A model generated the notes under the pieces. That model was given only the letters and a program-made list of their open reading frames with translations. It was not told where the DNA came from and did no database searches. The translations under genes were made by a program, and so were the position numbers. Shown here piece after piece: positions 9,468-35,846 of a stretch of 64,000 nt of DNA (position 1 is its first letter; each line of letters begins with the position of its first letter). The stretch covers positions 39,311 to 103,310 of the forward strand of contig JAPKZO010000040.1 of NCBI GenBank assembly GCA_026393755.1, read 5' to 3'. This DNA is from Acidobacteriota bacterium (GTDB taxonomy: Bacteria; Acidobacteriota; Vicinamibacteria; Vicinamibacterales; JAKQTR01).

Positions 9468-9473
9468 GCCGCG

Positions 9474-10106: not shown

Positions 10107-10122
10107 CTGATCTCTCCACTCA

Positions 10123-12272: not shown

Positions 12273-12287
12273 GAGTCTCCTTTTCGC

Positions 12288-12307
12288 GGGCGCAATGCAT
12301 TGCGCCC
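12288..12307 (-). other. intercistronic perfect 20-nt palindrome
   Basis: GGGCGCAATGCATTGCGCCC lies directly after the TAG of the aminotransferase gene and 15 nt before the mttB-family start. Its outer arms match the hairpin at 3247-3266. Confidence 0.8.
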
Positions 12308-13441
12308 CTACAAACCCCTCTGCTGCGGGAACAGTCCCCTGTGCCACAGGAACGCCTCGACGGCGGCCAGGAATTCCGTCAGGTACTCCTCGCTGGTGGC
12401 TCTGCCGAGATGCCCCACGCGGAAGATCTTGCCAGCCAGGTCTCCAAGCCCCCCCGAGATCGCGATGTGCCGCTCATCGAGCAGCCACCCACTGAATTCC
12501 GACACCGTGAACTCGGGCCGCGCGTGAAACGCCGTGACCATCGGCGCAGAGCACGACTCGGCCACGTACGGCACAAACCCCATCCTGATCATGCCTTCGC
12601 GGACGCGGCGTCCGGCGCGGGCGTACTTCGCGAGGTGCGCCGGCATCCCGACGCGGGCAATCGCCCGCAGGCTGGTGAGGACGGCGAGCAGCGTATTCGA
12701 CGACACGGTGACCGGCGTCGGGTGCCACGCGCCCCACTCCTTCGCGTACTGGCGCCATGTCCTGAGGTTCAGGTACCACCCATGGCCGGCGCCAGGGTGG
12801 TCGTCGACCATCTCCCACGCCCGCGGGCTGACACTGATGAAACCGAGGCCGGCCGGCCCTTCGAGGCACTTGTTCGACGCCGTCACGCACACATCAATGC
12901 CCCACGCATCGACCGGAAGCTCCACGCCGCCGAGCGACGAGACCGCATCGACGACCACAACGCGTCCGGCCGCGCGTGCCGCCGCCGCCAGTTCGCGGAT
13001 CGGGTTCAAGACGGTCGTGGAGGTCTCGTGATGCGTGATGGCCACGACTCTGGCGTCCGGGTGCGCGTCGCACACCAGGCGCAACGCAGCAGGATCGAGC
13101 GGCTGGCCAATCGGCGCCTTCAGCGGCACGACATTCAGCGCATGCGCTTCGGCGATATCGGTCAGCCGGTCGCCAAAGAACCCGTTCTGGCCGACGATGA
13201 TCGACTGGCCGATGGGGAGGAGGCTGCCGATCGCCATGTCGAGCGCGGCCGAGCCTGGCCCCGGCACGATGAACAGATCGGCGCCGGTCCCGAAGATCTG
13301 CTTCAGCAGCGTCTGGGCTTCGCCATACGTTGCCTTCCACACGGGGCCGTAGTGACGCTGGACCGGCTGCCCCATCGCGGCGAGCACCTCGTCGTCCACA
13401 TCGCCCGGCCCCGGAATAAAGAGCTTTACGTGATCCGTCAT
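12308..13441 (-). CDS. class-V pyridoxal-phosphate aminotransferase (alanine-glyoxylate/serine-pyruvate family)
   Basis: 377 aa. LFIPGPGDV N-terminus, TASNKCLEGPAGLG (PLP-lysine context), DAVSSLGG. Confidence 0.85.
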   Translation of the reverse strand: MTDHVKLFIPGPGDVDDEVLAAMGQPVQRHYGPVWKATYGEAQTLLKQIFGTGADLFIVPGPGSAALDMAIGSLLPIGQSIIVGQNGFFGDRLTDIAEAHALNVVPLKAPIGQPLDPAALRLVCDAHPDARVVAITHHETSTTVLNPIRELAAAARAAGRVVVVDAVSSLGGVELPVDAWGIDVCVTASNKCLEGPAGLGFISVSPRAWEMVDDHPGAGHGWYLNLRTWRQYAKEWGAWHPTPVTVSSNTLLAVLTSLRAIARVGMPAHLAKYARAGRRVREGMIRMGFVPYVAESCSAPMVTAFHARPEFTVSEFSGWLLDERHIAISGGLGDLAGKIFRVGHLGRATSEEYLTEFLAAVEAFLWHRGLFPQQRGL

Positions 13442-14934: not shown

Positions 14935-14952
14935 GCCGGATCCTCCCGCGTT

Positions 14953-21517: not shown

Positions 21518-21931
21518 TTAATCGTCGAACAACTCCGGCCGCGCGGACCGCAGGGCTGCCCGGACGGAACGGCCCGCAGTCACCGCTGCCCGGCACTCGT
21601 CCTCGAGGTACGAGGGGCCCCCGGGATACCGCGCGATCGTGCCGCCATCGGTCAGTTGCTGACGAAGGCGTGGCGTCAGGATATTCGCCAGGGCCTCGCG
21701 GATGTCGCTCTCCTGGGTCTCCAGGAGACGATCGAAGTTGTGCGTGTACACGAACGCCTGGTTCGCCGACGTCAAGACCGCTTTCAGAAGGCGCTCGGTC
21801 GCACCAGCGGACAACGCGACGGCCTCGTTCCACATCCGGCGCTCGAACGCCGTCTCCGCCAGCTCCAGCTGCCGGTCGGCAGCTGCCACCCACTCCCTCG
21901 CGAGCGTGCGAGCGCGATCGTCAGGCGGCAT
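21518..21931 (-). CDS. HEPN domain protein (putative toxin partner of the MNT gene)
   Basis: 137 aa. LLKAVL, THNFDRLLE and IARYPGG segments fit HEPN (PF05168-type) from memory. Its 5' end overlaps the upstream nucleotidyltransferase gene by 11 nt. Confidence 0.75.
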   Translation of the reverse strand: MPPDDRARTLAREWVAAADRQLELAETAFERRMWNEAVALSAGATERLLKAVLTSANQAFVYTHNFDRLLETQESDIREALANILTPRLRQQLTDGGTIARYPGGPSYLEDECRAAVTAGRSVRAALRSARPELFDD

Positions 21932-22481
21932 ACAACTCGATGCCTTCGCGGCTGGCGGGATGCTCGATCGCCCCCACGCAGTCGCGGCGCCACTCGTACT
22001 CGGAGTGCGTCGTGATCAGAAGGTCGTAGTCGATCGGCACCGATCCGATCGCGACACGCATGTCAATGACCGCGGCTCGGGTGGCGGGTTGCCCGTCGGG
22101 CAGCACGACGAGGATGTCGAGGTCACTGTCCGGACCAGCATCGCCGCGCGCATGTGACCCGAAGAGGACAATCCGTTCCGGATCCCACCGGCGCAGTTCC
22201 GTCACGATACGCTTCAGCGTGGCCGCATCAGCACCGGCCAAGCCCGCCTTGCGCCGGACCTCCTCGTAGGGCACGCGGCCGCGGTCGCGGCGCCCCTTCC
22301 GGGCAGCCTGCGCGTCATCCTGATCTTCGAGGGCTTCCAGACGAGCGAGGTCGGCAACCGAGACGAGCGCCGCGACGGCCTTGCCGTGGCGTTCGAGCAC
22401 GATCCGCTCGCCGCCATAGGCAACGCGGTTGAGGGTGTCACCGAACGTGTCGCGCACGGCCGTGGCAGCCAATCTAGCCAT
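21921..22481 (-). CDS. Phd/YefM-like antitoxin domain fused to a minimal nucleotidyltransferase (MNT) domain
   Basis: The N-terminal ~55 aa (AVRDTFGDTLNRVAYGGERIVLERHGKAVAALVSVADLARLEALED) look like Phd/YefM. A basic linker follows. The C-terminal part carries LFGSHARGDAGPDSDLDILVV, the GS-x9-12-D-x-D nucleotidyltransferase signature. Confidence 0.8.
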   Translation of the reverse strand: MARLAATAVRDTFGDTLNRVAYGGERIVLERHGKAVAALVSVADLARLEALEDQDDAQAARKGRRDRGRVPYEEVRRKAGLAGADAATLKRIVTELRRWDPERIVLFGSHARGDAGPDSDLDILVVLPDGQPATRAAVIDMRVAIGSVPIDYDLLITTHSEYEWRRDCVGAIEHPASREGIELYAA

Positions 22482-22654: not shown

Positions 22655-23635
22655 CTACCGGCCGGCCGACCATCCGACGAACGCGCCGGCGTCAAACCAG
22701 TCGCGCGTGAACCGGTTGTTTGAGCCGTACGGCCACGTGTGCACGTAGTTGGCCGCGACACCCATCGCCACGGCTCCGCGCGTGACGGTGAGTCGCAGTG
22801 AGGGCACAACGCTCAGGCCCTTTGCGATGAATACGATGTCCTGGCCCGGGTACTTGTCCGGCAGGCTCGTGGTCAGGCGAGCGAGCGTGAGGGGCGAGAC
22901 GTCGATACCAGCAGCCAGGCGCCAACGGCTGGCACCGGCCAAGGTCCGCGCGAGGCCGAACTGCGCCTCCTGGACAGCCGAGATTGTAATTTCCCGATCT
23001 GTGTTGAAGAACCGGCTCTCGGACGGAGGTGTTGAGTGGCGCGTGATGGAATCGCTCGGCCTGAACGCTGACCGGTCCCGCCGGTACACATATCCGACCC
23101 GGCCGGTGAAACCGTGAATCGCCCCCAGGTCCATGTGCTGACCGACGCGAAATCCGCTCACGGAGGTGACGGCGGTCGTGCCATACACGACGGTGTCGCC
23201 ATCGGGCTGAAAGAACGTGTCGTAGTCGTCGCCGACGCCGGTGCCCCGGGGCGCGAATCCCGCGTCAGTTTCCAGCCATCGGCCGAACACATAGTAGCGT
23301 GCCCGCGCGACGATCCAGTGATTACCGGCGTCATACTTCTGCTCGAAGAAGTGCGGCACCAGAGCGGGTGTACTAAAGCTCGAGGGGTGTTCGAAGCGGT
23401 ACCGATGCGTGTCGTCGCGAAACTCCCATCCGAACGTCACGGTCGCGATGTCGGGCGCCACCGACGACGGCGCCGGGGTGGCGGAACTGGCCGGCTGGGC
23501 AGCCGGACGCTGCCCGGCGACGGGCGTGGCGCCGATGGCCATCAACACGGCGCACAAGACAAATAACCGAATGCCGATTGGTTCCCGATTCCAGTCGCAT
23601 CGCGTCCGTCGCTCATCAAACGACGGTTTCACCAC
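22655..23635 (-). CDS. putative outer-membrane beta-barrel protein
   Basis: 326 aa. Signal peptide (LFVLCAVLMAIGATPVAGQ), an Ala/Pro/Ser linker, then aromatic/Gly-rich beta-strand pattern. It is the last gene of the minus-strand glycosyltransferase operon, with a 7-nt overlap with the small upstream ORF. Confidence 0.7.
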   Translation of the reverse strand: MVKPSFDERRTRCDWNREPIGIRLFVLCAVLMAIGATPVAGQRPAAQPASSATPAPSSVAPDIATVTFGWEFRDDTHRYRFEHPSSFSTPALVPHFFEQKYDAGNHWIVARARYYVFGRWLETDAGFAPRGTGVGDDYDTFFQPDGDTVVYGTTAVTSVSGFRVGQHMDLGAIHGFTGRVGYVYRRDRSAFRPSDSITRHSTPPSESRFFNTDREITISAVQEAQFGLARTLAGASRWRLAAGIDVSPLTLARLTTSLPDKYPGQDIVFIAKGLSVVPSLRLTVTRGAVAMGVAANYVHTWPYGSNNRFTRDWFDAGAFVGWSAGR

Positions 23636-23844
23636 CCGCCTCCCGGAAACGGACAGGCGGCCATCAACAGCGCGGCCGCTGCAACACCCACGATCACGAG
23701 CACCAGGCCGGCCTTCTCTCGGTAGGGGTCAAACGGAGGTTCCCCCCATTCCGATCCCCAGCGGCTTCGTAGCTTGGAACCGATCCGGCGTTCAAATTCG
23801 CGACCGACGAAGAACACGACGACTGCCAGAATGACGTATCGCAT
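23629..23844 (-). CDS. small two-TM membrane protein (71 aa)
   Basis: ATG 23844 lies 8 nt after the GT39 stop. Product MRYVILAVVVFFVG...AGLVLVIVGVAAAALLMAA has two hydrophobic helices. The rest of ORF 23629-24066 overlaps the GT39 gene and was rejected. Confidence 0.4.
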   Translation of the reverse strand: MRYVILAVVVFFVGREFERRIGSKLRSRWGSEWGEPPFDPYREKAGLVLVIVGVAAAALLMAACPFPGGGW

Positions 23845-23852
23845 CTCTCGGC

Positions 23853-25547
23853 TCACGCGCTCTTCCTTCTGAGCACCCACACGGAATTCGGACCAGGGGC
23901 TCGGCGCCTCGCCTCGGCGTCCCAGAAATACTCGGACGGCACCCCGGCAGAGCCGATCTCGATGATGCCAACGATGTCGTAGTGTGCCGGGGCATAGCGA
24001 TTGAACCACTCCCGGATGTCGGTCGGCGACTGGGGTGTGGCCAGCCACGACATCGAGACGTTGCAATACAACAGGTACTTGGGCCGTGCCGCCTCAATCT
24101 CGCTCATCATCTCGCGCTGCATCCGCACGTTGTCGGCCTGGGGTTCAACGAGCGGATAGACGTAGAGGTATCCTGTCGCCGATTGCCTTCCTGCGTACAC
24201 GAGAATCTCCGGCTCCGACCCGAGAATGGCGATGGTGTCTGCCGCCGTGGTGTCGCTGGCGATACGCGCCCCAATCGCTTTCGCCTCGACAAACGGGTTG
24301 CCCGCATAGATCTTCCTGCTCACCTCGTCTGGCGGGTCATCAACGTAATAGGCGCGGTCGTTGGCCATCGCGAAGATGCCCATCGCCGCAACCGCAACAA
24401 ACGGCAGCGCCCGGACGACCGAACCGCCACGAACCGACGGAACGAGCCGCGTGAAGAAGTCGAGCGCGATCGCGGCCAGAACGCCGACCGCAGGCAGCAG
24501 CAGAACGAAGTAGTGCTCCCTGAAGTTGAGGCCCGGCAGCACGGCGGCAACCGAGAAGACGGCGAGCGAGGTCACGAGGATCTTCTGGTGCAGCTCGTAC
24601 CTGGCCACCCACACGGCGGCGAGACCCGCCAGCGCCAGCAGCCACACGACCGGGTACTCCCTGAAGATCGGACCGAACGACAGGCGGAACAGCGCTGCCC
24701 CCACGTCCCACGGGGTTTCGGCCGATGCGTAGCTGGTGGCATAGGTGACGGTCCAGAACCAGAACCTGCCGAACGCGCCGTTGGCGGCCATCACGAGGAC
24801 AACGATGCCGTACGGAATCGCCGCGGCGACGACGTACGCCATCACGGCCATGAACATCTTCTTCCAGAGCCACGGGCGGACGGATGCGACGCGCACGAGC
24901 ACCATCAAGCCGCCGAACGCCACGAGGAACACCGCATGCTGCTTCATCAGGAACGCCAGACCGAACATCAACCCGGTAAGCGCGCCTTGCAGCCACGGCC
25001 TGCGCTCATTCCACCGCGAGTAGAACAGCAATCCAAGCAGCGCAAAGAAGTTGACGAAATGGGTCGCGTGGGCCGCGAAACCCAGCAGCGGGCTGCTCAC
25101 CGACAGCAGACCGTACACCGTGGCGGCCACCAGCGCGACCATCGGCGAGAACAGGCGCTTGAAGACGACGAACATCAGCGCGATCGTCGCCAGCGACAGC
25201 AGCATGAAACCCGCATGGACGCCCGCAGGCGAACTGCCAAAGACGGCCATGATCGCGGAGTACATCCCGTAGGTGCCGGGCAGCTTCATGTTGTACGCGT
25301 CGCGGTAGGGCAATCCGCCGTGCAGAATCAGGTTGCCCATGTACGCGTACTCGCCTTCGTCGCGCTCGAACGGCACCGCCAGGAGGCGCAGCCGAATCAC
25401 CGCGATGAGCACCAGCACGGCGGCGAGCGCCACGGTGTGGTAGTCGAATCGCGGAGTCGGGGCTGGCGTCGTGCCCTCGGCGGAAGGACGCGTGCCGTGT
25501 TTGCGATGGTGCGGCTTATGAATCGAGTTGGTCATCTGTTGCCGCAA
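23853..25547 (-). CDS. GT-C fold glycosyltransferase, family 39 / ArnT-PMT_2-like
   Basis: About 12 predicted TM helices. The first periplasmic loop carries PFERDEGEYAYMG, the acidic motif typical of ArnT/PMT-type enzymes. C-terminal soluble domain. The start is TTG 25547 or ATG 25535. Confidence 0.85.
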   Translation of the reverse strand: MRQQMTNSIHKPHHRKHGTRPSAEGTTPAPTPRFDYHTVALAAVLVLIAVIRLRLLAVPFERDEGEYAYMGNLILHGGLPYRDAYNMKLPGTYGMYSAIMAVFGSSPAGVHAGFMLLSLATIALMFVVFKRLFSPMVALVAATVYGLLSVSSPLLGFAAHATHFVNFFALLGLLFYSRWNERRPWLQGALTGLMFGLAFLMKQHAVFLVAFGGLMVLVRVASVRPWLWKKMFMAVMAYVVAAAIPYGIVVLVMAANGAFGRFWFWTVTYATSYASAETPWDVGAALFRLSFGPIFREYPVVWLLALAGLAAVWVARYELHQKILVTSLAVFSVAAVLPGLNFREHYFVLLLPAVGVLAAIALDFFTRLVPSVRGGSVVRALPFVAVAAMGIFAMANDRAYYVDDPPDEVSRKIYAGNPFVEAKAIGARIASDTTAADTIAILGSEPEILVYAGRQSATGYLYVYPLVEPQADNVRMQREMMSEIEAARPKYLLYCNVSMSWLATPQSPTDIREWFNRYAPAHYDIVGIIEIGSAGVPSEYFWDAEARRRAPGPNSVWVLRRKSA

Positions 25548-25618
25548 TCAGGAATCGCGACGCTAGCCATCTTCGAGCTCCATCTTACCGAATGAGCCAA
25601 GGATAAGGCGGAGCTTGA

Positions 25619-27367
25619 CTAGCGCCAGCCGGTCACGACGACGACCGGCAGATTTTCGAACGGGTTCACGCCGGACGGCGACGGCTTCATGACGACTCCC
25701 CCGCCCGTCGCGTGACTCGTAATGAAGTGCCCCGCGCGCATTCCCCAGACAATCGAATAAGGTTCGTCGAACCAGCCCCAGGGATTGTCTGGCGCAGGCC
25801 GGATCTCGGGCGGCGGCGTGCCGTCCAGCGGGATCCCGCCAACCAGCCAGACTCGATTGCCCCGCTGAAGAGTGGTCGCGATGCGCTGCAAGACGACATC
25901 AATCGGTCGCTCCTTCTGAATCTCCACCTTCAGCAAGTCGTACCGATGCAGAAAGTGATCCTCAAGTGGCGGAAGCGTGGTCCATGGAGCCGCACCGGTG
26001 TAGTAACGCGCGAAGGTCGCACCGCAGTACCACGGGTGGACAATGACGTAGTCGCCGAGCGATACCTCGCCGTTGAGCCGCGCGGCAATCATGTCGACAT
26101 TCGTCTGCCGCGTCTCGAGGGCAGGCAGCCCCCACACCAGCGCCGCTATGCCCGCCCAGGCGGCCAGCGCGGTCAGAGCCACCCGCGCCCATCGATGGGT
26201 CGTTGACAAGACCGCATCAAGGCAGACGGCCATAAATGCCATCAGCGTCGTGTAGTACCACGCCTGCGTGGGCAGGTCGGCCGTTTTGAGAAACCCGGCG
26301 AACATCCCCACGGCAACCACCATCGCGACGCCAGCAAACACGCTGAGGTCGCTGCTCTCCTTTTCCGCATATCCGAACGCGCGCCTGTACAGGCTCACAG
26401 TGGCCACGCCGACGGCAGCCGCCGACAGCGCCACCCACACCCAGTTGAACGCCGGCACCGGATAGCCTGTCGCCGATGACAGGTTCAGCCAGCCCCCGGC
26501 CCACTGAAACCCGGCCTTCTCGAGGGCATACCATTCCTGGGCGCGCCGGACGATGTCGAGGTAGGGAAGCAGCGACGCGGCCGCGAGCGCTCCGACACCA
26601 AGGGGCCAGAGCGTCTGGGCCCAGCGCCGACGGAGCAGGAATACGCTCGCGGCTCCGCAGCACGCGGCGAGCACGAAGATGGCATTCTGGTAGAGGCACT
26701 GCACGCTCAGGACCGCGACAGCCGCAGCCACGACGGCACTGGCTCGGGTCGGGCGCTCGACCAGACGCCACATGGCGGCCACGACCAGAATTGCCGACGT
26801 GGCGCCCAGCCCATACCCCCGAAATGAGTCGCCGACGGTAATGATGGTGGCGTTAATGCCCACGAGCGCGAGCAAGAGTACCGGCGGGCGCCGCCGCATC
26901 GCACCCGTGGCGACCCACAATGCCGCAAGTTGCAGCAGCCCGATCAGGAGCCCGAGCACGCGCAGGTGAAGATCCGAATACGCGAGTCCAAGCGACCACC
27001 ACGCCCGGATCGCCAGATGCACCATCGGCGTGCAGTGATCATACGGAAGCCAGCGCCAGACGTCGGAAAGTGACGGCCGCGTCGCGAGCCAGACGGTGCT
27101 GGCCTCATCTCTCCACAGCGCCCCGGCGTGCGTGAGAAAGAGGCCGTGCAAGGCGACCGCGAGGGCGGTCAACAGGCACGCCACCGTCCATTCGACAACG
27201 ACCAGGCGGCGTTCGCCGGCGGGATCCCCGGCGGCGTCTGCATTCATGACGCCGGTCGCCTGCCTCGCCTCTGGGGCCCGCCGGTTCCGAGGACTCCGCC
27301 GCGTCCGCAGCTCGTCGCGACTCGCGGAGGTCTGTCGATCGGCGCGTCCTCGGGTCTTCTTTGCCAT
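25619..27367 (-). CDS. polytopic membrane protein, probable GT-C glycosyltransferase
   Basis: Start set at ATG 27367, 8 nt after the GT9 stop (the ORF-track N-terminal 196 codons overlap the GT9 gene). Basic N-terminus, then many TM helices with LWRDEASTVW in the first loop. C-terminal soluble domain. The alternative start is 27247. Confidence 0.7.
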   Translation of the reverse strand: MAKKTRGRADRQTSASRDELRTRRSPRNRRAPEARQATGVMNADAAGDPAGERRLVVVEWTVACLLTALAVALHGLFLTHAGALWRDEASTVWLATRPSLSDVWRWLPYDHCTPMVHLAIRAWWSLGLAYSDLHLRVLGLLIGLLQLAALWVATGAMRRRPPVLLLALVGINATIITVGDSFRGYGLGATSAILVVAAMWRLVERPTRASAVVAAAVAVLSVQCLYQNAIFVLAACCGAASVFLLRRRWAQTLWPLGVGALAAASLLPYLDIVRRAQEWYALEKAGFQWAGGWLNLSSATGYPVPAFNWVWVALSAAAVGVATVSLYRRAFGYAEKESSDLSVFAGVAMVVAVGMFAGFLKTADLPTQAWYYTTLMAFMAVCLDAVLSTTHRWARVALTALAAWAGIAALVWGLPALETRQTNVDMIAARLNGEVSLGDYVIVHPWYCGATFARYYTGAAPWTTLPPLEDHFLHRYDLLKVEIQKERPIDVVLQRIATTLQRGNRVWLVGGIPLDGTPPPEIRPAPDNPWGWFDEPYSIVWGMRAGHFITSHATGGGVVMKPSPSGVNPFENLPVVVVTGWR

Positions 27368-27375
27368 CCTGTCGC

Positions 27376-28638
27376 TTACCCCTGGTCTGGTTCGGCCACA
27401 ACGGTGTCCCCGCCGGAGACTCGTGCCAGGTAGGCTGCCAGCGTCGCCTCGAACACCTCGTCCACGCTGATGCGCTGCATGCAGATGTTGTCGCGACATC
27501 GGGAGACGCGGTTGTTGAACGCGCTGACGCACGGGCTGCACACGGTTCCAGCCCACAGCACGTGGTTGCGGGGCGTGCGGGCCGCGAAGAGGGCTGGCGT
27601 CTCCGGGCCGAACAGCGTGACAACCTCGATCGAGGTCAGCGCCGCGAAGTGCGCCGGGCCGCTGTCGTTGGTCACCAGCACGCGCGACAGCGAGTAGAGA
27701 GCCAGCAGTTGGGGCAACGTGGTCTTGCCAGCCACCGACACGCAGCGTGGCGAGGCCACCGCCGCCGCCAATGCCTCCACGTCGTGCCTCTCCCCGGGCC
27801 CGCCGGTCAGAAGCACGTGAATCTCGGGAAGTGCGGCAAGCAGTCGTCTCGCCAGTTCGACGTAGCGTCCCGTATCCCATCGACGCAGCGGAAGCAGATC
27901 CCCGGTGTTCGCGTTGAGGAGGATGAGCGGCGGCTCCGCGGCCCCCCTCGTACACTCGCCCACCATGCGCCGCATCATCTCAACGTCAGCGTGTGAGATC
28001 CGGCGCGCTGGCGGCAGGAGTCGCGCCTCCGGGCGCGGCATGCTGCACGCGGGAAAGCGATCGGCCGGATGTGCGAGCGCCTCGACCATCACGAGGAAGA
28101 GGTCGCTCGTGTGGAGATACGGGTTGCACACGAGGCGGTGAGTCATCAGGTCACCCCGCCACGGCCCTTCACCGGCGAAGGAATGGAGTCCAACCCGAAC
28201 ACGGGCACCGCTCAGAAACGTGAGGATCGCTGACGCGCGGGCGAAGAACTCAAGATCGATCGCCGCGTCGATGTGGAGTGCCCGGAGCCGAGCGACGACA
28301 CGCCACACCGAGCGCGCGGCGCTGGGCAGGGAGTCCACATCGAGCGTGAGGACATTCCCGGCGGGGACGAGTTCCATCGCGTCGAGGATGAAGCGGTTCT
28401 CCTGGAACGCAAGGAAGAAGACATTCTCACGGCCAACCTGCTCGATGGCGCGGAGCAGCGCGCCGGCAGCCAGTACGGTCGATCCCTGTTCCGCGAGTTT
28501 GACGAACAGGATTCGTCGAATCGTGGCAATCGGTTCGGAACGCCGGAACACGAGCCTGTACAAGGTCAGGAACCCGCAGCCCGGCACGCCGATCCACCGA
28601 TCTACGGCTCTGAGCGTCGAAACCCGCATCAGGCACAC
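27376..28638 (-). CDS. glycosyltransferase family 9 (heptosyltransferase-like, GT-B)
   Basis: 420 aa. ILFVKLAEQGSTVL N-terminal pattern. C-terminal LVTNDSGPAHFAAL and GTVCSPCV are typical of GT9/ADP-heptose transferases. Confidence 0.85.
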   Translation of the reverse strand: MCLMRVSTLRAVDRWIGVPGCGFLTLYRLVFRRSEPIATIRRILFVKLAEQGSTVLAAGALLRAIEQVGRENVFFLAFQENRFILDAMELVPAGNVLTLDVDSLPSAARSVWRVVARLRALHIDAAIDLEFFARASAILTFLSGARVRVGLHSFAGEGPWRGDLMTHRLVCNPYLHTSDLFLVMVEALAHPADRFPACSMPRPEARLLPPARRISHADVEMMRRMVGECTRGAAEPPLILLNANTGDLLPLRRWDTGRYVELARRLLAALPEIHVLLTGGPGERHDVEALAAAVASPRCVSVAGKTTLPQLLALYSLSRVLVTNDSGPAHFAALTSIEVVTLFGPETPALFAARTPRNHVLWAGTVCSPCVSAFNNRVSRCRDNICMQRISVDEVFEATLAAYLARVSGGDTVVAEPDQG

Positions 28639-28815
28639 GCGCCTTTCTGTAATCGTCGTCAGCCACGCGGCAGGAGCCCGATAAGGCCAGCCGCACCCGC
28701 CATTCTAGTGCAATGAAGGAGACCCACAGCACGTGTGCCGGGCTCCGGCGTGACTGCCCAGCGCGCCGTGGTATTCTCTCAGGCCCGGGATGAAACCGCG
28801 TCACGCGCCATCGCC

Positions 28816-30513
28816 ATGAATCCTGTGTCGAAGGCTCTGTCGGTACTATCAGGGCCCACTCTGTGGCTGCTGCTGACGCTGGCGGCGCTGACGGCCTTCG
28901 TCTACGCACCGGTCCGCCACTTCGACTTCGTGCTCCTTGACGATCCCGCGTACGTCACCGAGAACCCTCACGTGGCGCGCGGGCTGACGCGGGAGGGAAT
29001 CGCCTGGGCGTTCACTACGGGCGACGCGGCCAACTGGCACCCGGTGACGTGGCTGTCGCACATGCTCGACGTCCAGTTGTTCGGCGTCGCCGCGGGGCCG
29101 CATCACCTCACCAACGTGGTCCTGCACATCGCAAACACCCTGCTGCTGTTCGGCGTGCTTCTCACGCTGACCGGCGCCATGTGGCGGAGCGCGTTTGTCG
29201 CGGCCCTGTTCGCCGTCCATCCATTGCATGTCGAATCGGTCGCATGGATTGCCGAGCGCAAGGACGTGCTGAGTACGCTCTTCTGGATGCTCACGCTGTG
29301 GGCCTACGTCCGGTACGTGCGCGCGCCGGGTTCCCCGGCGGGAACGGCAGGCCCTTCCGCCGCCAGTCGCTCCCGGCGCGGGTTCTACCTGCTCATGCTC
29401 GCCTTCTTCGCCCTGGGCCTGATGGCGAAGCCGATGCTGGTGACGCTCCCGTTCGTGCTGCTGCTGCTCGACGTCTGGCCGCTTGAGCGGCTGGCCGTGA
29501 CGGCATCGGACGCCGGGCGGGCGAAGGCGGGCGGCCACGCGTCGGGGCGCGCGGCCGCCGGGTCCTCCAGGGCGGGTGCCGCGAAGGGCCGCGCGAACCG
29601 CCGATTGGCAGGGGCCAGAACGCCCCGGAGATCCGGCCGGCTGCGGGCCGCATGGCCGCTCGTCCGGGAGAAACTCCCGCTGTTCGTCATGGCGGTCGCG
29701 TCGAGCGCCGTCACCTTCGTCGTCCAGCAGCGCGGCGGAGCGGTCAGCACGCTCGAGACGTATCCCTTCGGCTTGCGGCTGCAGAACGCGCTGGTGTCGA
29801 TGGTTGCCTACCTCCGCGATACGCTGTGGCCCGAGGGCTTGACCGTGCTGTATGCGTTCCCCGACGCTATCCCTGGATGGCAGTTGGCCGGCGCGCTCGT
29901 GGTTCTGGGCGGCATCTCCTGGCTGGTGTACGCCCTGGCCCGCCAGCATCCGTACCTGCCGGTGGGATGGCTCTGGTACCTGGGGACATTGATGCCGGTC
30001 GTGGGTCTGGTACAGGTCGGTGTGCAGGCGAGGGCAGATCGCTACACGTACGTGCCGCTCATCGGGATCTTTGTCATGGTCGCCTGGGGTTCCGCCGCGA
30101 TGCTCGAACGCCTGCGTGGCGGACGCCGTGTCGCGATTGTCGCGGCAGTGGTGGTGATTGCCGGCTGTTCGGTGACGACGCGGGCACAAGTCGCGTACTG
30201 GAAGGACAACGTCACGCTCTTCACGCGGGCAACGATGCTCAGCTTGCACATGGACGAATTCGAGGCGCACATGTGGGTGGGGACGGCGGTCGGTGGCCAG
30301 GGGCGGTTGGACGAAGCGATGCGTCACTTCGAGGCGGCCGCGCGCCTGCGGCCGCAGTCCGACGCGGCGCATTGCAGCCTGGGCGTTTCGTTGGCAAAGT
30401 CGGGACGCGCAGCAGACGCGATGCGCGAATTCAACGAGGCGCTGCGTCTGAATCCTGACAATCAGATCGCGCGCCGTGCCGTCGACGGACTGAACCGCCG
30501 CAATCAATTCTGA
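28816..30513 (+). CDS. TMTC-like GT-C glycosyltransferase with C-terminal TPR repeats
   Basis: Start set at ATG 28816 (MNPVSKAL). LLDDPAYVTENP in the first loop. AVHPLHVESVAWIAERKDVLSTLFWML is the DUF1736-type motif of TMTC/PMT_2 proteins. About 10 TM helices and a basic Ala/Gly/Arg-rich insertion. TPR units at the C-terminus. Confidence 0.85.
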   Translation: MNPVSKALSVLSGPTLWLLLTLAALTAFVYAPVRHFDFVLLDDPAYVTENPHVARGLTREGIAWAFTTGDAANWHPVTWLSHMLDVQLFGVAAGPHHLTNVVLHIANTLLLFGVLLTLTGAMWRSAFVAALFAVHPLHVESVAWIAERKDVLSTLFWMLTLWAYVRYVRAPGSPAGTAGPSAASRSRRGFYLLMLAFFALGLMAKPMLVTLPFVLLLLDVWPLERLAVTASDAGRAKAGGHASGRAAAGSSRAGAAKGRANRRLAGARTPRRSGRLRAAWPLVREKLPLFVMAVASSAVTFVVQQRGGAVSTLETYPFGLRLQNALVSMVAYLRDTLWPEGLTVLYAFPDAIPGWQLAGALVVLGGISWLVYALARQHPYLPVGWLWYLGTLMPVVGLVQVGVQARADRYTYVPLIGIFVMVAWGSAAMLERLRGGRRVAIVAAVVVIAGCSVTTRAQVAYWKDNVTLFTRATMLSLHMDEFEAHMWVGTAVGGQGRLDEAMRHFEAAARLRPQSDAAHCSLGVSLAKSGRAADAMREFNEALRLNPDNQIARRAVDGLNRRNQF

Positions 30514-30525
30514 CCGGGCTACGCG

Positions 30526-31290
30526 ATGATTAGGGAAAAGAAGCTGGTCGTCGTGATGCCCGCCTACAACGCGGCGCTCACGATTGAAAAGACCTGGCGA
30601 GAGGTGATCGCCCAGGAGATCGTCGATCTGGTGATCGTCGTGGACGACGCGAGTGGCGACGGCACGTTGTCGCTCGCACGCACCCTCGACAAGGTGCTGA
30701 CCCATGCGCACCCCAGCAATCGCGGCTACGGCGCCAATCAGAAGACCTGCTACCGCCTCGCCCTGGCTCAGGGAGCCGACATCGTCGTCATGGTGCATCC
30801 CGACTACCAGTACTCGCCCAAGCTGATTCCCGCGATGGCGAATCTGGTGGCCAGCGGCCTGTACTCGTGCGTGCTCGGCTCGCGCATCCTCGGCGGTGGA
30901 GCGCTCACCGGGGGCATGCCCGCGTGGCGCTATGTCGCGAACCGGCTGCTCACCTTGGCCGGCAACCTGCTGCTCGGCACCAAGGTGTCGGAGTTTCACA
31001 CGGGCTACCGCGCGTTCTCGCGGGAGTTTCTGGAGCACCTGCCGCTGGACGCCAACTCGGATGATTTCGTGTTCGACAACGAGGTGCTGGCCGAGGCGGC
31101 GTGGCTCGGGTACGCCATCGGCGAGGTCTCGTGTCCAACCCGCTACGCCCCGGACGCTTCGTCCATCACCTTCTGGCGCAGTGTGCGATACGGGTTTGGC
31201 TGTCTGGCGACCGCGTGTGTGTTCCGACTGGCCAAGTGGGGCCTGGTGCGGTCGGCGAGGTTTCCTTCGGCAGTCCACACCGGCGCCTGA
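30526..31290 (+). CDS. glycosyltransferase family 2 (polyprenyl-phosphate sugar synthase-like)
   Basis: VVVMPAYNAALTIEKT, VVVDDASGDGT, NRGYGANQK and VMVHPDYQY match the GT2 Dpm1/ArnC/GtrB-type layout. Confidence 0.85.
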   Translation: MIREKKLVVVMPAYNAALTIEKTWREVIAQEIVDLVIVVDDASGDGTLSLARTLDKVLTHAHPSNRGYGANQKTCYRLALAQGADIVVMVHPDYQYSPKLIPAMANLVASGLYSCVLGSRILGGGALTGGMPAWRYVANRLLTLAGNLLLGTKVSEFHTGYRAFSREFLEHLPLDANSDDFVFDNEVLAEAAWLGYAIGEVSCPTRYAPDASSITFWRSVRYGFGCLATACVFRLAKWGLVRSARFPSAVHTGA

Positions 31291-31359
31291 GAACCGCGCC
31301 TTTTACGCTTGCTGAGCACTGATGACCGATCCGATGAAGATCAGGGGCCGACGTCGGAG

Positions 31360-31875
31360 CTACTTCGCGGCTGACACCTGGATCGGCACGTTGAGGTCGG
31401 CCACCTGCGGCCGGATGCAGAGAACGCCGTTGCAGGCCTGCCAGGTCGCCCTGATGTGCGCGACATGCCTGCCCGGAGCGGTCGTCGCCGCCGCCGCCTT
31501 GAGAGGCACCTTGAAGCTGACGCTCTCGGTGTAGTACTCCGTCTCGGAGTCCTGTGCCTTGTCGAACCCTGTCTCCGGGGCCGGCGCCTCGATCTTGCCG
31601 CCGAGGGTGAACGGCTGGCCGTCTGGCACGGTGATGCGCGTGGGATCGGGCGGGGCCTGCTGGGTCAGCGAGTAGAGATGCCACCCGTCTTCGATGCGGG
31701 CCGTGATCTCGACGCGAACGCTCGCGCCAGCCTTCACCGACGCGTTGACCGACGTAACCGACCAGGTGATCGGCGCCTTCTGCCGGGCCATCACAGCCGG
31801 CTCGCCTGCCAGAGCCATCGCCGCCACTGTCAAGACCAGGACCAACATCCGCCGGGCGCGCATCGGGATCATCAT
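31360..31875 (-). CDS. DsbD N-terminal (alpha) domain-like periplasmic protein
   Basis: Signal peptide. GWHLYS and the C-terminal WQACNGVLCIRP cysteine pair resemble the thiol:disulfide interchange protein DsbD N-terminal domain family. Confidence 0.65.
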   Translation of the reverse strand: MMIPMRARRMLVLVLTVAAMALAGEPAVMARQKAPITWSVTSVNASVKAGASVRVEITARIEDGWHLYSLTQQAPPDPTRITVPDGQPFTLGGKIEAPAPETGFDKAQDSETEYYTESVSFKVPLKAAAATTAPGRHVAHIRATWQACNGVLCIRPQVADLNVPIQVSAAK

Positions 31876-31937
31876 AGGTTCTCCGACTCTATCCGCCAGC
31901 GGCGGGCCCTGTCAAAAGGGCGACAGCCCGGATGGGC

Positions 31938-31994
31938 AATTACTCCCGGAGTAATTGTTCCCGAACGTTCGGTAACAATCACTCCGGGAGTGAT
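31938..31994. repeat. palindromic repeat cluster C (composite 57-bp palindrome)
   Basis: AATTACTCC-C-GGAGTAATT (31938-31956, perfect). Inner perfect palindrome CCGAACGTTCGG (31961-31972). AATCACTCC-G-GGAGTGAT (31977-31994) is in inverted orientation. The cluster ends 5 nt before the stop of the gene at 32000. Confidence 0.95.
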
Positions 31995-31999
31995 CATTT

Positions 32000-34321
32000 T
32001 CACGGGGCCCGGCGCGGCATCAGCGCTCTGGTCTGTCGGATGGCCTCGTTGATTTGGCCGACCATGTCTGTTCGGCCGGTCGCGGTCGCGATGCCGAGCG
32101 CCTTCTCCAGGCTCGCAACCGCTTCCCCAATACGACCCGCCTTCGCATAGGCCTGGGCGGCGAGGTACGGCGCATCGACGGAATCCGGCGACAAACGTCC
32201 CGCTTCCTCGTACTGCCCGATCCCCTCGGCGATTCGGCCGGCCTCACAAAGTGCGTTGCCAAGATTGATGCGGAGACCATAGTTGCCCGGCTGGAGCCGA
32301 ACCGCCTCGCGGAAGTGCCTGAACGCCGCCTCGAAATCCCGGACAGAGGCCAGCGCGAACGCCAGATTGCCGTGTGCCTCGACGTCGTCCGGCTTGAGCG
32401 CCAACGCCTTCTGATACTCGGCAATCGCCTCCTGAACGGCACCCGTCTGCTGAAGCGCCACGGCGAGGTTGTTGTGAGGGCTGGGAGTATCTGGCGCCAG
32501 CGCCATGGCGCGCCGATGCTCGATAATCGCGTCGTTCGACAGGCCCGCCTCCATCAGGGCTAGTCCCAGATTCGAGTGTGCCTCGACCGAACGCGGCAGC
32601 AGCCGCGCCGCTTCCTTGAGGTGCGGAAGGGCCTCAGCCGGCCTGCCCAGGCCCCGCAACAACACTCCGAGCGCGCTGTGCGCTTCGGCGTAATCCGGGC
32701 GCAGGGCGATGGCCCTCGTCAGTTCTTCAAGGGCGGCCTGCGGCTCTCCGGTCTGCCGGTAGGCCTGCCCCAGGCTGAAGTGCGGTTCGGCGAAGGTTTC
32801 GTCCACCGCTGCGGCCTTCAGCAGCACGGAAATCGCGTCGGCGGCTCGCCCGTCCTGTACGAGGAACGCGCCGAGGTTGATGTACGTCTGGTCGTGAACC
32901 ACCTTCATCGGAAGATGCGTGACAACCGCCAACACTCCAGCGGCGGCGAGTCCGGGGATCCATTGTCGCTTCCAGTCCGGGCGCGTCACCGGTCGGCGAT
33001 CGGCCGGCAGTTTTCGCGCATGCCCGCGCTCGCGCCGCCCGGCCGCTGGCTTCGGCGCACTCACCCGCCGGAGGTCAAACACGGCGCCCAACCCGGCCGC
33101 CGAGAAGAGGAGCACGATCGGAACCAGGGGATGCCGATACCGAGCGACGACGAAGAACACGGCCACCGACAGCGCCAGGCCGACGAACATCCCGTACAGG
33201 ACCAGTAACGGTCGCCATCTCCCGCGATGGATCCAGACACCGAGAGCGGCGATCGGCAGCACGACGCCGAAACTGAACCACATCAGCGCACCGAGCATCC
33301 GGGAGGAATCGGCGTATGCCTCAATCGATTCGGTATCCGGGATCTCGGCCGCGTTGAACGTCAGAAGCAGCTTCTTCCCCAGCAGCGCGAGCCACTGAAC
33401 CGGTTGGGCGCGGATGTAGTCAAACGACTGGCGAAGCCAGTAGTCGGACACCTCGCCAGGCGACAGCGGCCGGCCGGCCGCTGTCGACGCGAGTGCGGTG
33501 GCGTCGGCGCGTTCGTAGACCGCGTCACCACGGCCAGGCACCAGGGAGTCGTAACTGCCCGAGGCGTGGGCGTTGTTGCCGATGAAGAAATTCGGCCCGA
33601 GCTGAGAGGTTGACAGGAGGAACTCGCCGCCAACCCGGTAGTTGCGAATGCCTACGGGCAGCAAGACGACCAGCGTGGCGCAGAGGAACGCGGCGGCCCA
33701 CCCGACCCGGCGACGGACGGGGACGTCGCGAAACTGAAACAGCAGCCAAGCCCCGATGACCGGGTAGATGATCCGGGCATTCTCGCGGTTCAGCGTGAGT
33801 GCCGCGGTGGCAGCACCGAGCGCGATCAGCCACCGCCAGCGAGGCTGGTGCTGGAACTCCGCGACGAAGACGATGACCAGTGTGATCAGGAAGATATCCA
33901 GTGACGACTTCTGGATCAGTCCATCGAAGAAGATCGCAGGAGGATAGAACGCCAGCAGCAGCGCGGCAATCACGCCGACCCGGTCGCTGAAGAACCGGCG
34001 GCCCGCCAGGCCGATCAACGCGCAGGATGCTGCACCGAGGATGGCCTGGACAACCCGCACCAGGCCCAGGTTGTGGCCTGCGATCTTGAAGATGGCGGCA
34101 AGACAATACGGATAAAGAGGTGTCTGGTAGAAGATCTCGGTGCCGATCCACTGCCCACCCGCGATCTGTCGCGCCCACTGGTCGTACTGGCGGCTGTCGC
34201 CCATCAGGACGGACAGGAGCGGATTCCCGCTGAGTTCGGCCAGGTAGACAAGCCGGACGGCCAGGGCGACCAGCGCAATCCCTAGCAGGGTGACAGACGG
34301 GCGCAGGTGACGGAGGTTCAT
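32000..34321 (-). CDS. GT-C (PMT_2/ArnT-like) glycosyltransferase with C-terminal TPR array
   Basis: 773 aa. N-terminal polytopic domain with LMGDSRQYDQWA in the first loop. A further TM cluster, then about 8 TPR units (YRQTGEPQAALEELTRAIALRPDYAEAH and similar). Confidence 0.85.
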   Translation of the reverse strand: MNLRHLRPSVTLLGIALVALAVRLVYLAELSGNPLLSVLMGDSRQYDQWARQIAGGQWIGTEIFYQTPLYPYCLAAIFKIAGHNLGLVRVVQAILGAASCALIGLAGRRFFSDRVGVIAALLLAFYPPAIFFDGLIQKSSLDIFLITLVIVFVAEFQHQPRWRWLIALGAATAALTLNRENARIIYPVIGAWLLFQFRDVPVRRRVGWAAAFLCATLVVLLPVGIRNYRVGGEFLLSTSQLGPNFFIGNNAHASGSYDSLVPGRGDAVYERADATALASTAAGRPLSPGEVSDYWLRQSFDYIRAQPVQWLALLGKKLLLTFNAAEIPDTESIEAYADSSRMLGALMWFSFGVVLPIAALGVWIHRGRWRPLLVLYGMFVGLALSVAVFFVVARYRHPLVPIVLLFSAAGLGAVFDLRRVSAPKPAAGRRERGHARKLPADRRPVTRPDWKRQWIPGLAAAGVLAVVTHLPMKVVHDQTYINLGAFLVQDGRAADAISVLLKAAAVDETFAEPHFSLGQAYRQTGEPQAALEELTRAIALRPDYAEAHSALGVLLRGLGRPAEALPHLKEAARLLPRSVEAHSNLGLALMEAGLSNDAIIEHRRAMALAPDTPSPHNNLAVALQQTGAVQEAIAEYQKALALKPDDVEAHGNLAFALASVRDFEAAFRHFREAVRLQPGNYGLRINLGNALCEAGRIAEGIGQYEEAGRLSPDSVDAPYLAAQAYAKAGRIGEAVASLEKALGIATATGRTDMVGQINEAIRQTRALMPRRAP

Positions 34322-34534
34322 GGGGTTCGGCGGACCTATTCTGCCATCAAGTCGCGCAGAGAGAGAGGGCCACGGCCCCGAAATCGAGGCTCCAAGCCAA
34401 TCTATGCGATAATACTCGGAGCATACACGCGTGAAGGGTGGTCGCGAAGCCCGTCGATTGAACCCCTCTGTTGACCGACCTGCCGTCCGGTTTCCCTCGG
34501 ATCAACACCCTGCACGCCTGATACATTCGAGGAA

Positions 34535-35794
34535 TTGACCACATTGACCCCATCGACCTCCCACGAGCAATCGCGACGTCCGCGCCGGCCCGGCGGCCGA
34601 TCCGGCGCGCATCGGCCGGCCCCGACGACCAAACCGCCTGTCACCCTCCCATTTGAGACGCTCGCCCACGACCCGACCCCCATCGATTTCTCGGCATTGA
34701 CGCTGGATCCGCGCATCCGAGTCGGCATCGAGGATCGCGGGTTTACCCGCACGACGCCGATTCAGAGTGCCGTGTTCCCCGTCGTGTTCGCAGGCGCGGA
34801 TTTGATCGCCTGCGCGGAGACCGGGACGGGCAAGACGGCGGCCTTTCTGCTGCCCATCATGCAGCGGCTGCTCGAACAGCCCGTCAGCCAGCCGTGCACG
34901 CGGGTGCTCGTGCTGGCGCCGACGCGCGAACTCGCGGTCCAGATCGAGGACGACTTCCAGGGATTTGCGTATCACACCACGCTCACCAGCGTCGCGGTGT
35001 ACGGGGGCGTCGATGCGGACATGCAGACGCGGGGCCTGAAGTCGGGTGCCGACATCGTTGTCGCCACGCCTGGGCGCCTGCAGGACCTGATGAACTGCGG
35101 TGCGGCGGATTTCACGCGGCTCGAAGTGCTGGTCCTGGACGAGGCGGACCGCATGATGGACATGGGCTTCTGGCCTGATGTGAGCCGCATCGTCGCGACA
35201 CTGCCCAAGGCGCGGCAGACGCTGCTGTTTTCGGCGACCACATCGAGCGACGTCGTCCGGATGGCCGACGAGATCATGCACGCGCCGAAACACGTGCAGA
35301 TCGGCCGTGCCGGTGGACCGGCCACCACGATCACGCACGTGGCGTTCGAGGTGCCGTCGCGGGAGAAGACAGACTGGCTGGCCCAGTTTCTGCGGCGCCA
35401 TCGCGAACCCGCGCTGGTCTTCGTGCGCACGAAGCGATTTGCCGACACGCTGGCCTCCGCGCTGTCGGGCCGCGGCATCAAGTGTGTGGCGCTGCACGCG
35501 GACCGGACGCAGCGGGAACGGACCGCGGCGGTCGAGGGGTTCCGGAGCGGCCGGCACACGGTTCTGGTGGCCACCGACATCGCCGCACGCGGCCTCGACA
35601 TCGACGGCATCTCGCACGTGATCAACTACGAGGTCCCGCACTCGCCGGATGCCTACGTGCATCGCGTCGGCCGCACGGGACGCGCCGAAGCCACCGGAAC
35701 GGCGGTGACGCTGGTGGCTGCCGACGAACTGCCCTACCTGCACGCGATCGAGAAGTCGATCAACATCCGGATGGGCGACGGCCGCGCGGCGTAG
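34535..35794 (+). CDS. DEAD-box ATP-dependent RNA helicase
   Basis: Q-motif region (GFTRTTPIQ), AETGTGKT, VLDEADRMMDMGF, SAT, HRVGRTGRA. The start is uncertain (TTG 34535 or TTG 34544 after GAGGAA). It is preceded by a ~210-nt untranslated region. Confidence 0.9.
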   Translation: MTTLTPSTSHEQSRRPRRPGGRSGAHRPAPTTKPPVTLPFETLAHDPTPIDFSALTLDPRIRVGIEDRGFTRTTPIQSAVFPVVFAGADLIACAETGTGKTAAFLLPIMQRLLEQPVSQPCTRVLVLAPTRELAVQIEDDFQGFAYHTTLTSVAVYGGVDADMQTRGLKSGADIVVATPGRLQDLMNCGAADFTRLEVLVLDEADRMMDMGFWPDVSRIVATLPKARQTLLFSATTSSDVVRMADEIMHAPKHVQIGRAGGPATTITHVAFEVPSREKTDWLAQFLRRHREPALVFVRTKRFADTLASALSGRGIKCVALHADRTQRERTAAVEGFRSGRHTVLVATDIAARGLDIDGISHVINYEVPHSPDAYVHRVGRTGRAEATGTAVTLVAADELPYLHAIEKSINIRMGDGRAA

Positions 35795-35817
35795 GGGATG
35801 TCTGGCTCGCCGTCCAG

Positions 35818-35846
35818 TTGACATCTCCCCCGCCCGGGCGTATCAA
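35818..35846 (+). promoter_or_regulatory. sigma-70-type promoter candidate
   Basis: TTGACA-N17-TATCAA. The -10 ends 44 nt upstream of ATG 35891. Confidence 0.45.

Follow-up and report, generated by a model that had tools for sequence, protein, structure and literature searches.

A cluster of membrane glycosyltransferases in a metagenome-assembled genome of a soil acidobacterium raises the question of what it glycosylates, and whether one of its enzymes is a bacterial counterpart of the animal TMTC O-mannosyltransferases. The cluster lies at 22.6-34.3 kb of a 64,000-nt stretch of contig JAPKZO010000040.1 (assembly GCA_026393755.1), which was analysed as a whole and is called the window below. 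It comprises four proteins of the glycosyltransferase (GT) type GT-C, two of which carry tetratricopeptide repeats (TPRs), together with a GT2 and a GT9 enzyme (Table 1). The central element is a 565-aa GT-C with TPRs, designated here the TMTC-like enzyme. We read the locus as a cluster for periplasmic glycosylation that depends on a polyprenyl-phosphate sugar, this enzyme most likely acting on proteins, and consider the reading moderately probable.

Relationship to the animal TMTC enzymes

On sequence grounds, the TMTC-like enzyme is a true bacterial homologue of the TMTC catalytic domain. When the profile of its family was compared by hhalign with human TMTC3, the match reached 95.8% probability (E 8e-9) over 145 columns across motifs M1, M2 and M3, a segment that covers DD, WHPxT and HPxHxExV...RxD. 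The same profile gave 9.8%, 4.3% and 0.3% against the other three GT-Cs of the locus, the highest of these values belonging to the 773-aa GT-C. D42/D43 were aligned to TMTC3 D31/D32 and the loop-2 motif to H130...R143/E145. BLASTP of the protein against TMTC3 gave 3e-10, and a second, collinear segment, a weak match (E 0.009), pairs ADRYTYVP with AERVLYVP, corresponding to motif M7. Definitions of the TMTC motifs, such as M1 (DD in EL1) and M3 (in EL2), are those of PMC7801869, according to which DUF1736 lies in the TM7-TM8 loop (EL4) of the TMTCs.

A sequence-only reading of the locus had described the string HPLHVESVAWIAERKDVL as a motif of DUF1736 type, and this label has to be abandoned. 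HPLHVESVAWIAERKDVL aligns to TMTC3 HPIHTEAVTGVVGRAELL, which bears motif M3 in loop EL2 and is outside residues 259-330, where the TMTC3 N-terminal sequence, taken as control, matches PF08409 (TMTC_DUF1736) with E 1e-31. PF08409 gives no match to the TMTC-like protein at E<=10 or to any of 13 close homologues at E<=1, and is missing from the precomputed Pfam lists of the best 120 relatives. The sequence-only reading had named failure of its motif assignment under hidden Markov model analysis as evidence against itself; for DUF1736 the assignment does fail, and the relationship to TMTC survives through M1-M3 and, more weakly, M7. As the Pfam-defined DUF1736 feature is missing, the enzyme is called TMTC-like and not a member of the TMTC family, which we take to be CAZy family GT105.

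Architecture of the TMTC-like enzyme

The AlphaFold2 (AF2) model of the TMTC-like protein (pLDDT 82, pTM 0.82) contains 11 helices of transmembrane (TM) length, followed by six C-terminal helices that form three TPRs, and Pfam TPR families match the same C-terminus. The predicted cytoplasmic loops of the model are strongly basic. From these positive-inside loops, the topology was deduced in which the N-terminus is predicted to be cytoplasmic and the TPRs periplasmic. Invariant residues of the family cluster in the loops, namely D42-D43 and W74-H-P-x-T in loop 1, H135-P-L-H-V-E-S-V...E147-R-K-D150 in loop 2, K205 in loop 3 and R409-x-x-Y412 in loop 5; among them D42, D43, H135, P136, E140, R148 and D150 are unchanged across 54 homologues. 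Loop 4 shows a Y-x6-P pattern (Y332...P339).

The membrane domain has no direct match in Pfam, NCBIfam or PDB. PMT_2 is matched by 6 of 13 homologues (best E 4e-9), and the domain is assigned to the GT-C type at family level. A PDB sequence search with full-length TPR proteins returned TPR proteins only, one with the membrane-domain profile of the TMTC-like protein returned nothing meaningful, and Foldseek of the model against PDB was dominated by TPR and all-alpha matches. An identical (100%) NCBI protein, from an Acidobacteria metagenome-assembled genome (MAG), is annotated as ‘tetratricopeptide repeat protein’. Residues 221-272 form a 50-residue Arg/Lys/Ala/Gly-rich low-complexity insertion (pLDDT <50) in the predicted cytoplasmic TM6-TM7 loop, the length of which differs between homologues.

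A predicted donor synthase

Twelve nucleotides downstream of the TMTC-like gene lies the gene of a GT2 without TM domain. Its sole PDB sequence match is the Pyrococcus furiosus dolichyl-phosphate-mannose (Dol-P-Man) synthase 5mlz (2e-6), and its best NCBIfam matches are AglJ, Dol-P-hexose transferase and PpgS, all under cut-off; the PgfS model is matched weakly (6e-7). The protein is thus a predicted polyprenyl-phosphate hexose synthase and would supply the donor, in line with the sequence-only reading, which had also paired it with the TMTC-like enzyme. Its orthologues repeatedly abut TMTC-like genes. They are 62-94% identical across phyla, with a mean column identity of 76%, whereas the neighbouring GT-Cs are much less conserved (45-50% identity). 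Judged from these alignments, the constraint on the protein is unusually strong for a GT2. Conservation extends over Acidobacteriota, Gemmatimonadota, Planctomycetota and Desulfobacterota (loci L010, L013, L026, L027, L036, L045, L058, L073, L082 and L090).

Family spread and recurrence of the cluster

Homologues of the TMTC-like protein are numerous (at least 8000 matches), and many are named ‘protein O-mannosyl-transferase’ by the Joint Genome Institute (JGI). A scan of one genome per species yielded at least 600 matches, from which 80 loci were kept. They belong to at least eight phyla (Acidobacteriota, Desulfobacterota/‘delta proteobacteria’, Verrucomicrobiota, Planctomycetota, Gemmatimonadota, Nitrospinota, Armatimonadota and Bacteroidota), the closest species-level relative among the matches listed being a Vicinamibacterales MAG. 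Tandem arrays of two to five TMTC-like paralogues are found in 34 of the 80 loci. The TMTC-like gene is accompanied by a GT2 orthologue in 10 loci, by an orthologue of the 564-aa GT-C in six and by GT9 in one (the planctomycete array L089); the 582-aa protein, the β-barrel protein and the DsbD_N protein of the present locus appear in none of the 80. A second sample was based on the GT2 and consisted of 35 metagenome loci with at least 5 kb of flank. Here a TMTC-like gene lies within 300 bp of the GT2 in 12 loci and within 3 kb in 16, and a GT-C of the 564-aa type within 300 bp in four. In L103, a 582-aa-like protein with LWQDE is followed by a 564-aa-type GT-C and then by the GT2. The remaining GT2 genes are either solitary among housekeeping genes or adjacent to different polytopic proteins. 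Such a distribution is consistent with a single donor synthase in each genome that supplies many dispersed GT-Cs.

Among related acidobacteria, the genes of the TMTC-like enzyme, the 564-aa GT-C, GT9 and the 582-aa GT-C remain clustered, in varying order. In L172, two TMTC-like genes are divergent from a series composed of the 564-aa GT-C (67% identity), GT9 (80%) and the 582-aa GT-C (58%), with a second GT9 and a PMT_2+TPR gene close by. In L090, GT9 (81%) is divergent from a TMTC-like gene (85%) followed by the GT2 (94%). In L001 and L010, the 564-aa GT-C is divergent from two TMTC-like genes, and L010 additionally has the GT2. Altogether, 564-aa orthologues (38-69% identity) adjoin TMTC-like and/or GT2 genes in L001, L010, L013, L025, L051, L057, L073, L172 and several metagenome loci, and PMT_2+TPR genes resembling the 773-aa GT-C occur near the cluster in L001 and L172.

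These data bear on one alternative, namely that there is no system at all and that unrelated GT genes stand side by side in a genome rich in GT-C paralogues. It would account for the barrel and DsbD_N genes, which are not conserved neighbours, and for the lack of a nearby partner for TMTC-like genes in 70 of the 80 loci and for about half of the GT2 orthologues. It does not account for the re-clustering of the same four or five families in L172, L090, L001 and L010, and across phyla in L013, L027, L058, L073 and L103, nor for the gaps of 8-12 nt that indicate co-transcription. We regard it as very improbable.

Three further gene families were noticed around the related loci. An open reading frame (ORF) resembling S-adenosylmethionine-dependent methyltransferases (280-339 aa; assigned by eye) occurs at L025:718-1728, L026:4335-5177, L045:10-1029, L050:13665-14507 and L051:693-1703. 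It is directly upstream of the GT2 in L026, L045, L050 and L125, and L025 and L051 have no GT2 in the locus; its product could methylate the sugar or the donor. No such ORF is present in the window. A polytopic GT-C-like family of 572-592 aa with HMDDPLF in loop 1 accompanies GT2/TMTC-like arrays in other phyla (Table 1). Large outer-membrane proteins with CarboxypepD_reg and OMP_b-brl_4 domains are encoded 3-6 kb from the GT clusters in L001, L002, L172 and L173, and may be candidate acceptors or merely abundant in those genomes.

The other GT-C proteins, GT9 and the lipopolysaccharide alternative

All GT-Cs of the locus had been recognized in the sequence-only reading. Membership is direct for the 564-aa protein, described there as GT39/ArnT-like, and for the 773-aa protein with its TPRs, since both match PMT_2; for the other two it holds at family level only. 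The 582-aa protein has no direct match in Pfam, NCBIfam or PDB, and a PDB search with its membrane profile gave nothing meaningful. Its claimed GT-C character is nevertheless upheld within its family of 1833 representative clusters, where 9 of 44 homologues match PMT_2 (best E 4e-10) and W85-R-D-E88 in loop 1 is invariant. Searched alone against metagenome contigs, it retrieved no relatives. Like the 564-aa GT-C, it ends in a C-terminal soluble domain, in its case of ∼170 aa. In the first loop on the periplasmic side, the acidic pair reads DD in the TMTC-like enzyme, WRDE in the 582-aa protein and ERDE (within ERDEGEY) in the 564-aa protein. By profile comparison, the 773-aa GT-C is placed in a GT-C family other than that of the TMTC-like enzyme.

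The GT9 protein scores 80 bits against Pfam Glyco_transf_9 (gathering cut-off 22), and its PDB match is RfaF (6e-10). With the NCBIfam models of heptosyltransferases I, II and III it scores 64, 62 and 39 bits, far below the cut-offs of 170, 135 and 185. The GT9 family is best known for heptosylation of the lipopolysaccharide (LPS) core. The cluster may serve LPS only, GT9 building the inner core and the GT-Cs decorating lipid A or core with the donor sugar made by the GT2 on polyprenyl phosphate, in a manner that resembles ArnT/ArnC, Rhizobium RgtA-E, Francisella FlmK/FlmF and Bordetella LgmA/B. LPS is favoured by the conserved GT9 neighbour and by the PMT_2/ArnT-like nature of the TPR-less GT-Cs, PMT_2 being a family that also includes ArnT-like enzymes. 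GT9 is clustered with GT-Cs here, in L172 and L090 (80-81% identity) and once in L089, and the phyla of the 80 retrieved loci are all, as we presume, diderm. Against this stand the distance of GT9 from the heptosyltransferase cut-offs and its solitary position in an unrelated context at 66% identity (L173), as well as the lack of ArnA/B/D-type, lpx or kdt genes in the window. LPS modification would also hardly explain why up to five TPR-bearing paralogues stand in one array, or the specific kinship with a family of protein O-mannosyltransferases. On balance, an LPS-only role is unlikely.

Proposed mechanism and comparison with known systems

Glycosylation of proteins by the TMTC-like enzyme would proceed as follows. 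On the cytoplasmic face, the GT2 would load polyprenyl phosphate with a hexose taken from a nucleotide sugar, as its family similarity suggests, and the lipid-linked sugar would be flipped by a transporter presumably encoded elsewhere. On the periplasmic face, the four GT-Cs, each with an acidic pair in loop 1, would use it as donor. By analogy with TMTC1-4 and TfpW, the TMTC-like enzyme would most likely O-glycosylate secreted, periplasmic or outer-membrane proteins. Its TPRs may pick the acceptor, in which case the tandem paralogues of other genomes would represent different acceptor specificities. GT9 and the two TPR-less GT-Cs may serve the same pathway or the LPS core. Protein O-glycosylation by the TPR-bearing enzymes is plausible by these analogies, and a protein acceptor is favoured by the TMTC kinship, the TfpW analogue and the diversifying paralogue arrays.

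As in animal TMTC1-4, 11 TM helices precede TPRs that form the C-terminus and lie on the non-cytoplasmic side. Shared motifs are DD in loop 1, a (S/W)H(K/P)..(R)P.T-like motif and HPxHxExV...RxD/E in loop 2; a Lys of loop 3 and (E/D)RxxYxP of loop 5 correspond less clearly. The TMTCs have about 8-10 TPRs, whereas the TMTC-like enzyme has three, and its donor would be a bacterial polyprenyl-phosphate sugar. Moreover, the bacterial family forms tandem paralogue arrays and, unlike TMTC1-4, has no known cadherin-type acceptor.

A bacterial parallel is Pseudomonas aeruginosa TfpW, an 11-TM GT-C whose TPR domain is periplasmic and which is responsible for O-arabinofuranosylation of pilin, with a polyprenyl-phosphate sugar as donor and a protein as acceptor (bioRxiv 10.1101/2020.04.19.049825). 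Compared by description, TfpW shares with the TMTC-like enzyme the loop-1 DDx motif, the C-terminal periplasmic TPRs and the loop-4 Y-x6-P. It differs in genomic context, tfpW being directly downstream of pilA and its D-arabinofuranose (D-Araf) coming from DprE1/E2-type genes, neither of which is found in this locus. In streptococci, PgfS, a GT2 (GT-A) enzyme, makes the polyprenyl-phosphate sugar and the GT-C PgfM1 transfers it to Ser/Thr outside the cytoplasm (PMC12041528). Ppm1/Pmt of actinobacteria and PgfS/PgfM1 follow the same GT2 + GT-C logic as proposed here, but the Pmt and PgfM1 GT-Cs (PMT/GT39 and YfhO type) are devoid of TPRs and belong to monoderms, in contrast to the TMTC-like family from diderm phyla. 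ArnC/ArnT and Gtr-type systems likewise share a GT2 synthase, a GT-C and a PMT_2-type membrane domain. Unlike them, the locus has no flippase (GtrA, ArnE/F or MATE) and no 4-amino-4-deoxy-L-arabinose (Ara4N) genes: ArnA, ArnB and ArnD were missing among the locus genes and 20 flanking genes scanned. Conversely, ArnT and GtrC lack the TPR fusion and the TMTC-specific motifs, both seen in the TMTC-like enzyme.

TPRs occur in the export proteins BcsC, PgaA and AlgK, and weak NCBIfam TPR matches to BcsC and PgaA were obtained. This invites another explanation, side-chain glycosylation by a Gtr-like system with O antigen, capsule or exopolysaccharide as its target and with TPRs that bind the glycan or the export machinery. 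The combination of GT2 and GT-C is indeed the logic of three-component systems (PMC11127046). The set of synthase, flippase and GT-C is incomplete in the present case, with the GT2 and GT-Cs only and a doubtful 71-aa ORF. Neither the locus nor the related loci examined contain Wzx/Wzy, ABC, synthase or flippase genes, and a protein is the acceptor that the TMTC-specific motifs favour. A polysaccharide target is improbable.

Several points weigh against the main reading. No glycoprotein, pilin or Ser/Thr-rich candidate is conserved beside the genes. Neither a flippase (GtrA, ArnE/F or MATE type) within 22.6-34.3 kb nor sugar-nucleotide genes in the locus were found, and the conserved GT9 points towards LPS. 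In the comparison with the TMTCs, a DUF1736/EL4 region with its DW metal-binding motif did not align in hhalign and is not recognizable, and the M4 position shows invariant K205 followed by P206, that is K-P in place of the K-E(T/Q)xxT of the TMTCs. Finally, the human TMTC3 N-terminal sequence used in these comparisons was checked only through its PF08409 match and through residue numbers in Table 4 of PMC7801869, with which it agrees at D31/D32, S66-P72, R143/E145 and K188-Q190.

The barrel, DsbD_N and 71-aa neighbours

The sequence-only reading had identified an outer-membrane β-barrel at the end of the minus-strand operon and proposed it as a possible substrate of the glycosylation enzymes. 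The first part is borne out. The AF2 model (38 homologues; pLDDT 91) is all-beta with ∼12 long strands, and its best Foldseek matches in PDB are the omptins Pla and OmpT (TM-scores 0.62-0.69, E 1e-10, ∼10% identity). The protein has a signal peptide and an A/P/S/T-rich N-terminal linker and no Pfam match. Its family is small (185 matches) and without Pfam model, and D106-x-D108, H64 and E184 are invariant in it; from the modelled fold and these residues, its members may be outer-membrane proteases of an omptin-like family of Acidobacteria that has not been described before. The second part is not borne out. Barrel homologues (40-72% identity) lie in unrelated neighbourhoods on six other contigs, unlinked to GT genes, and none was found among 160 related loci, so that the barrel was rejected as a conserved partner or substrate. 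The A/P/S/T-rich linker is frequent in the barrel family and is not specific evidence. The barrel is probably outside the glycosylation system. In two cases, a MIP aquaporin gene adjoins a barrel homologue.

The DsbD_N protein likewise has no counterpart in the 160 related loci. Its gene is separated by 124 nt from the upstream gene, and its sequence context suggests that it is transcribed apart from the 773-aa GT-C. Just upstream of it, a sigma-70-like promoter match (10/12; TTGACA-18-TAGAGT) is present at 31886-31915 on the minus strand; the regional count of such sites is not above chance. DsbD_N and the barrel are neighbours at this locus only, not conserved partners. As to the 71-aa ORF, read earlier as a TM protein, it exists and has two hydrophobic segments, but its GC content at third codon positions (GC3) is low and it gave no match in the 160 related loci, tblastn being weak at this length.

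Gene models and surrounding genes

The GC content of the window is ∼66%, and six-frame ORF lists are rich in artefacts. Real reading frames were chosen by codon-position GC. Proteins of the window, looked up by exact sequence, returned no record. The nine ORFs of the earlier annotation are all found at their coordinates (Table 1), as are the strings LWRDEAS, PFERDEGEY, LLDDPAY and HPLHVESVAWIAERKDVL. GC3 is 0.79-0.89 in eight of the nine, as expected for real genes, the exception being the 71-aa ORF. Long antisense ORFs at 28849-31278 (minus), 23982-25595 (plus) and 34502-35824 (minus) were dismissed as high-GC artefacts by the same measure, and a 778-aa extended version of the 582-aa gene was rejected since the GC3 of the extension is only 0.53. 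Intergenic distances in the minus-strand set are 8, 71, 8 and -7 nt; these short gaps and the spacing of TMTC-like gene and GT2 indicate co-transcription and agree with the operon arrangement claimed before. Pfam also agrees with the earlier domain claims for GT9, GT2, the TPRs and the DsbD-N-like protein.

Table 1. Genes of the glycosylation locus (positions in the window) and a polytopic family of related loci (positions in each locus)
Feature	Position	Strand	Basis
Omptin-like barrel, 326 aa	22655-23635	-	AF2 model + Foldseek
71-aa ORF, two hydrophobic segments, uncertain gene	23629-23844	-	ORF only, GC3 0.68
PMT_2-type GT-C, 564 aa	23853-25547	-	Pfam PMT_2 1e-10
Polytopic GT-C-like protein, 582 aa	25619-27367	-	GT-C at family level only
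GT9 (GT-B, heptosyltransferase-like), first gene of minus-strand operon	27376-28638	-	Pfam Glyco_transf_9 2e-22
TMTC-like GT-C + TPR, 565 aa	28816-30513	+	hhalign vs TMTC3, Pfam TPR
GT2, Dpm1/Ppm1-like, 254 aa	30526-31290	+	Pfam GT2 9e-21
DsbD_N-like secreted protein, 171 aa	31360-31875	-	Pfam DsbD_N 3e-13
PMT_2-type GT-C + ∼8 periplasmic TPRs, 773 aa	32000-34321	-	Pfam PMT_2 3e-14 + many TPR families
HMDDPLF polytopic proteins	L026:6021-7799, L050:15351-17069, L058:9787-11520, L089:2790-4523		

The flanking genes encode a Phd/nucleotidyltransferase protein, a DEAD-box helicase, a molybdo-oxidoreductase, two-component regulators and a corrinoid methyltransferase cluster. As they are unrelated, the limits of the glycosylation cluster remain roughly those set in the sequence-only reading. 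Beside it, at 21921-22481 (minus strand), a 186-aa ORF combines a Phd/YefM antitoxin domain (9e-11) with NTP_transf_2/Pol-beta (6e-13) and, from these domains, looks like an unusual fused toxin-antitoxin-type protein. At 13438-14952 (minus strand), a DsbB domain (residues 15-96) is N-terminal in a stop-to-stop frame of ∼504 codons, the other ∼400 residues of which have no Pfam match. The corrinoid cluster (8586-13462, minus strand) contains an MttB-family methyltransferase, a B12-binding protein, a Met_synt_B12-like domain, a homocysteine S-methyltransferase and a class-V aminotransferase, and suggests quaternary-amine or methylamine demethylation in an acidobacterium.

Novelty and significance

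The sequence-only reading had considered such a system uncharacterised. This is correct insofar as no functional study of a bacterial TMTC-like enzyme was found in the literature searched, but TfpW is a characterised GT-C with TPR. Full-length prokaryotic TMTC homologues with transferase and TPR parts, from many poorly characterised prokaryotes, were reported in 2021, with a deltaproteobacterial example at E 3e-47 (PMC7801869). Bacterial TMTC-like homologues are thus already published and reflected in pipeline annotation such as the JGI names, and the locus is mainly a well-annotated example of a family noticed before. What is added is a corrected motif mapping, the recurrent module of GT2, 564-aa GT-C and TMTC-like enzyme, the paralogue arrays and the exclusion of the barrel as a partner. 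The conserved GT2, the TMTC-like GT-C and the 564-aa GT-C make up a module that can be tested.

A broader proposal is tentative, and we hold it to be possible rather than probable. TMTC-like GT-Cs with TPRs, together with one conserved Dpm1-like GT2, would constitute a general system for O-glycosylation of proteins in diderm phyla such as Acidobacteriota, Planctomycetota, Verrucomicrobiota and Desulfobacterota, in which the TPRs of the paralogues select different sets of periplasmic or outer-membrane proteins, and would be the counterpart, possibly the evolutionary source, of animal TMTC O-mannosylation. Should the TPR-bearing enzymes prove to act on proteins, dozens of paralogues per genome would write a large and unexplored O-glycoproteome in the periplasm of several abundant, little-studied phyla of soils and sediments. 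The bacterial enzymes would then also be tractable models of how TMTC TPRs choose their substrates, the human TMTC enzymes being linked to brain malformation and hearing loss.

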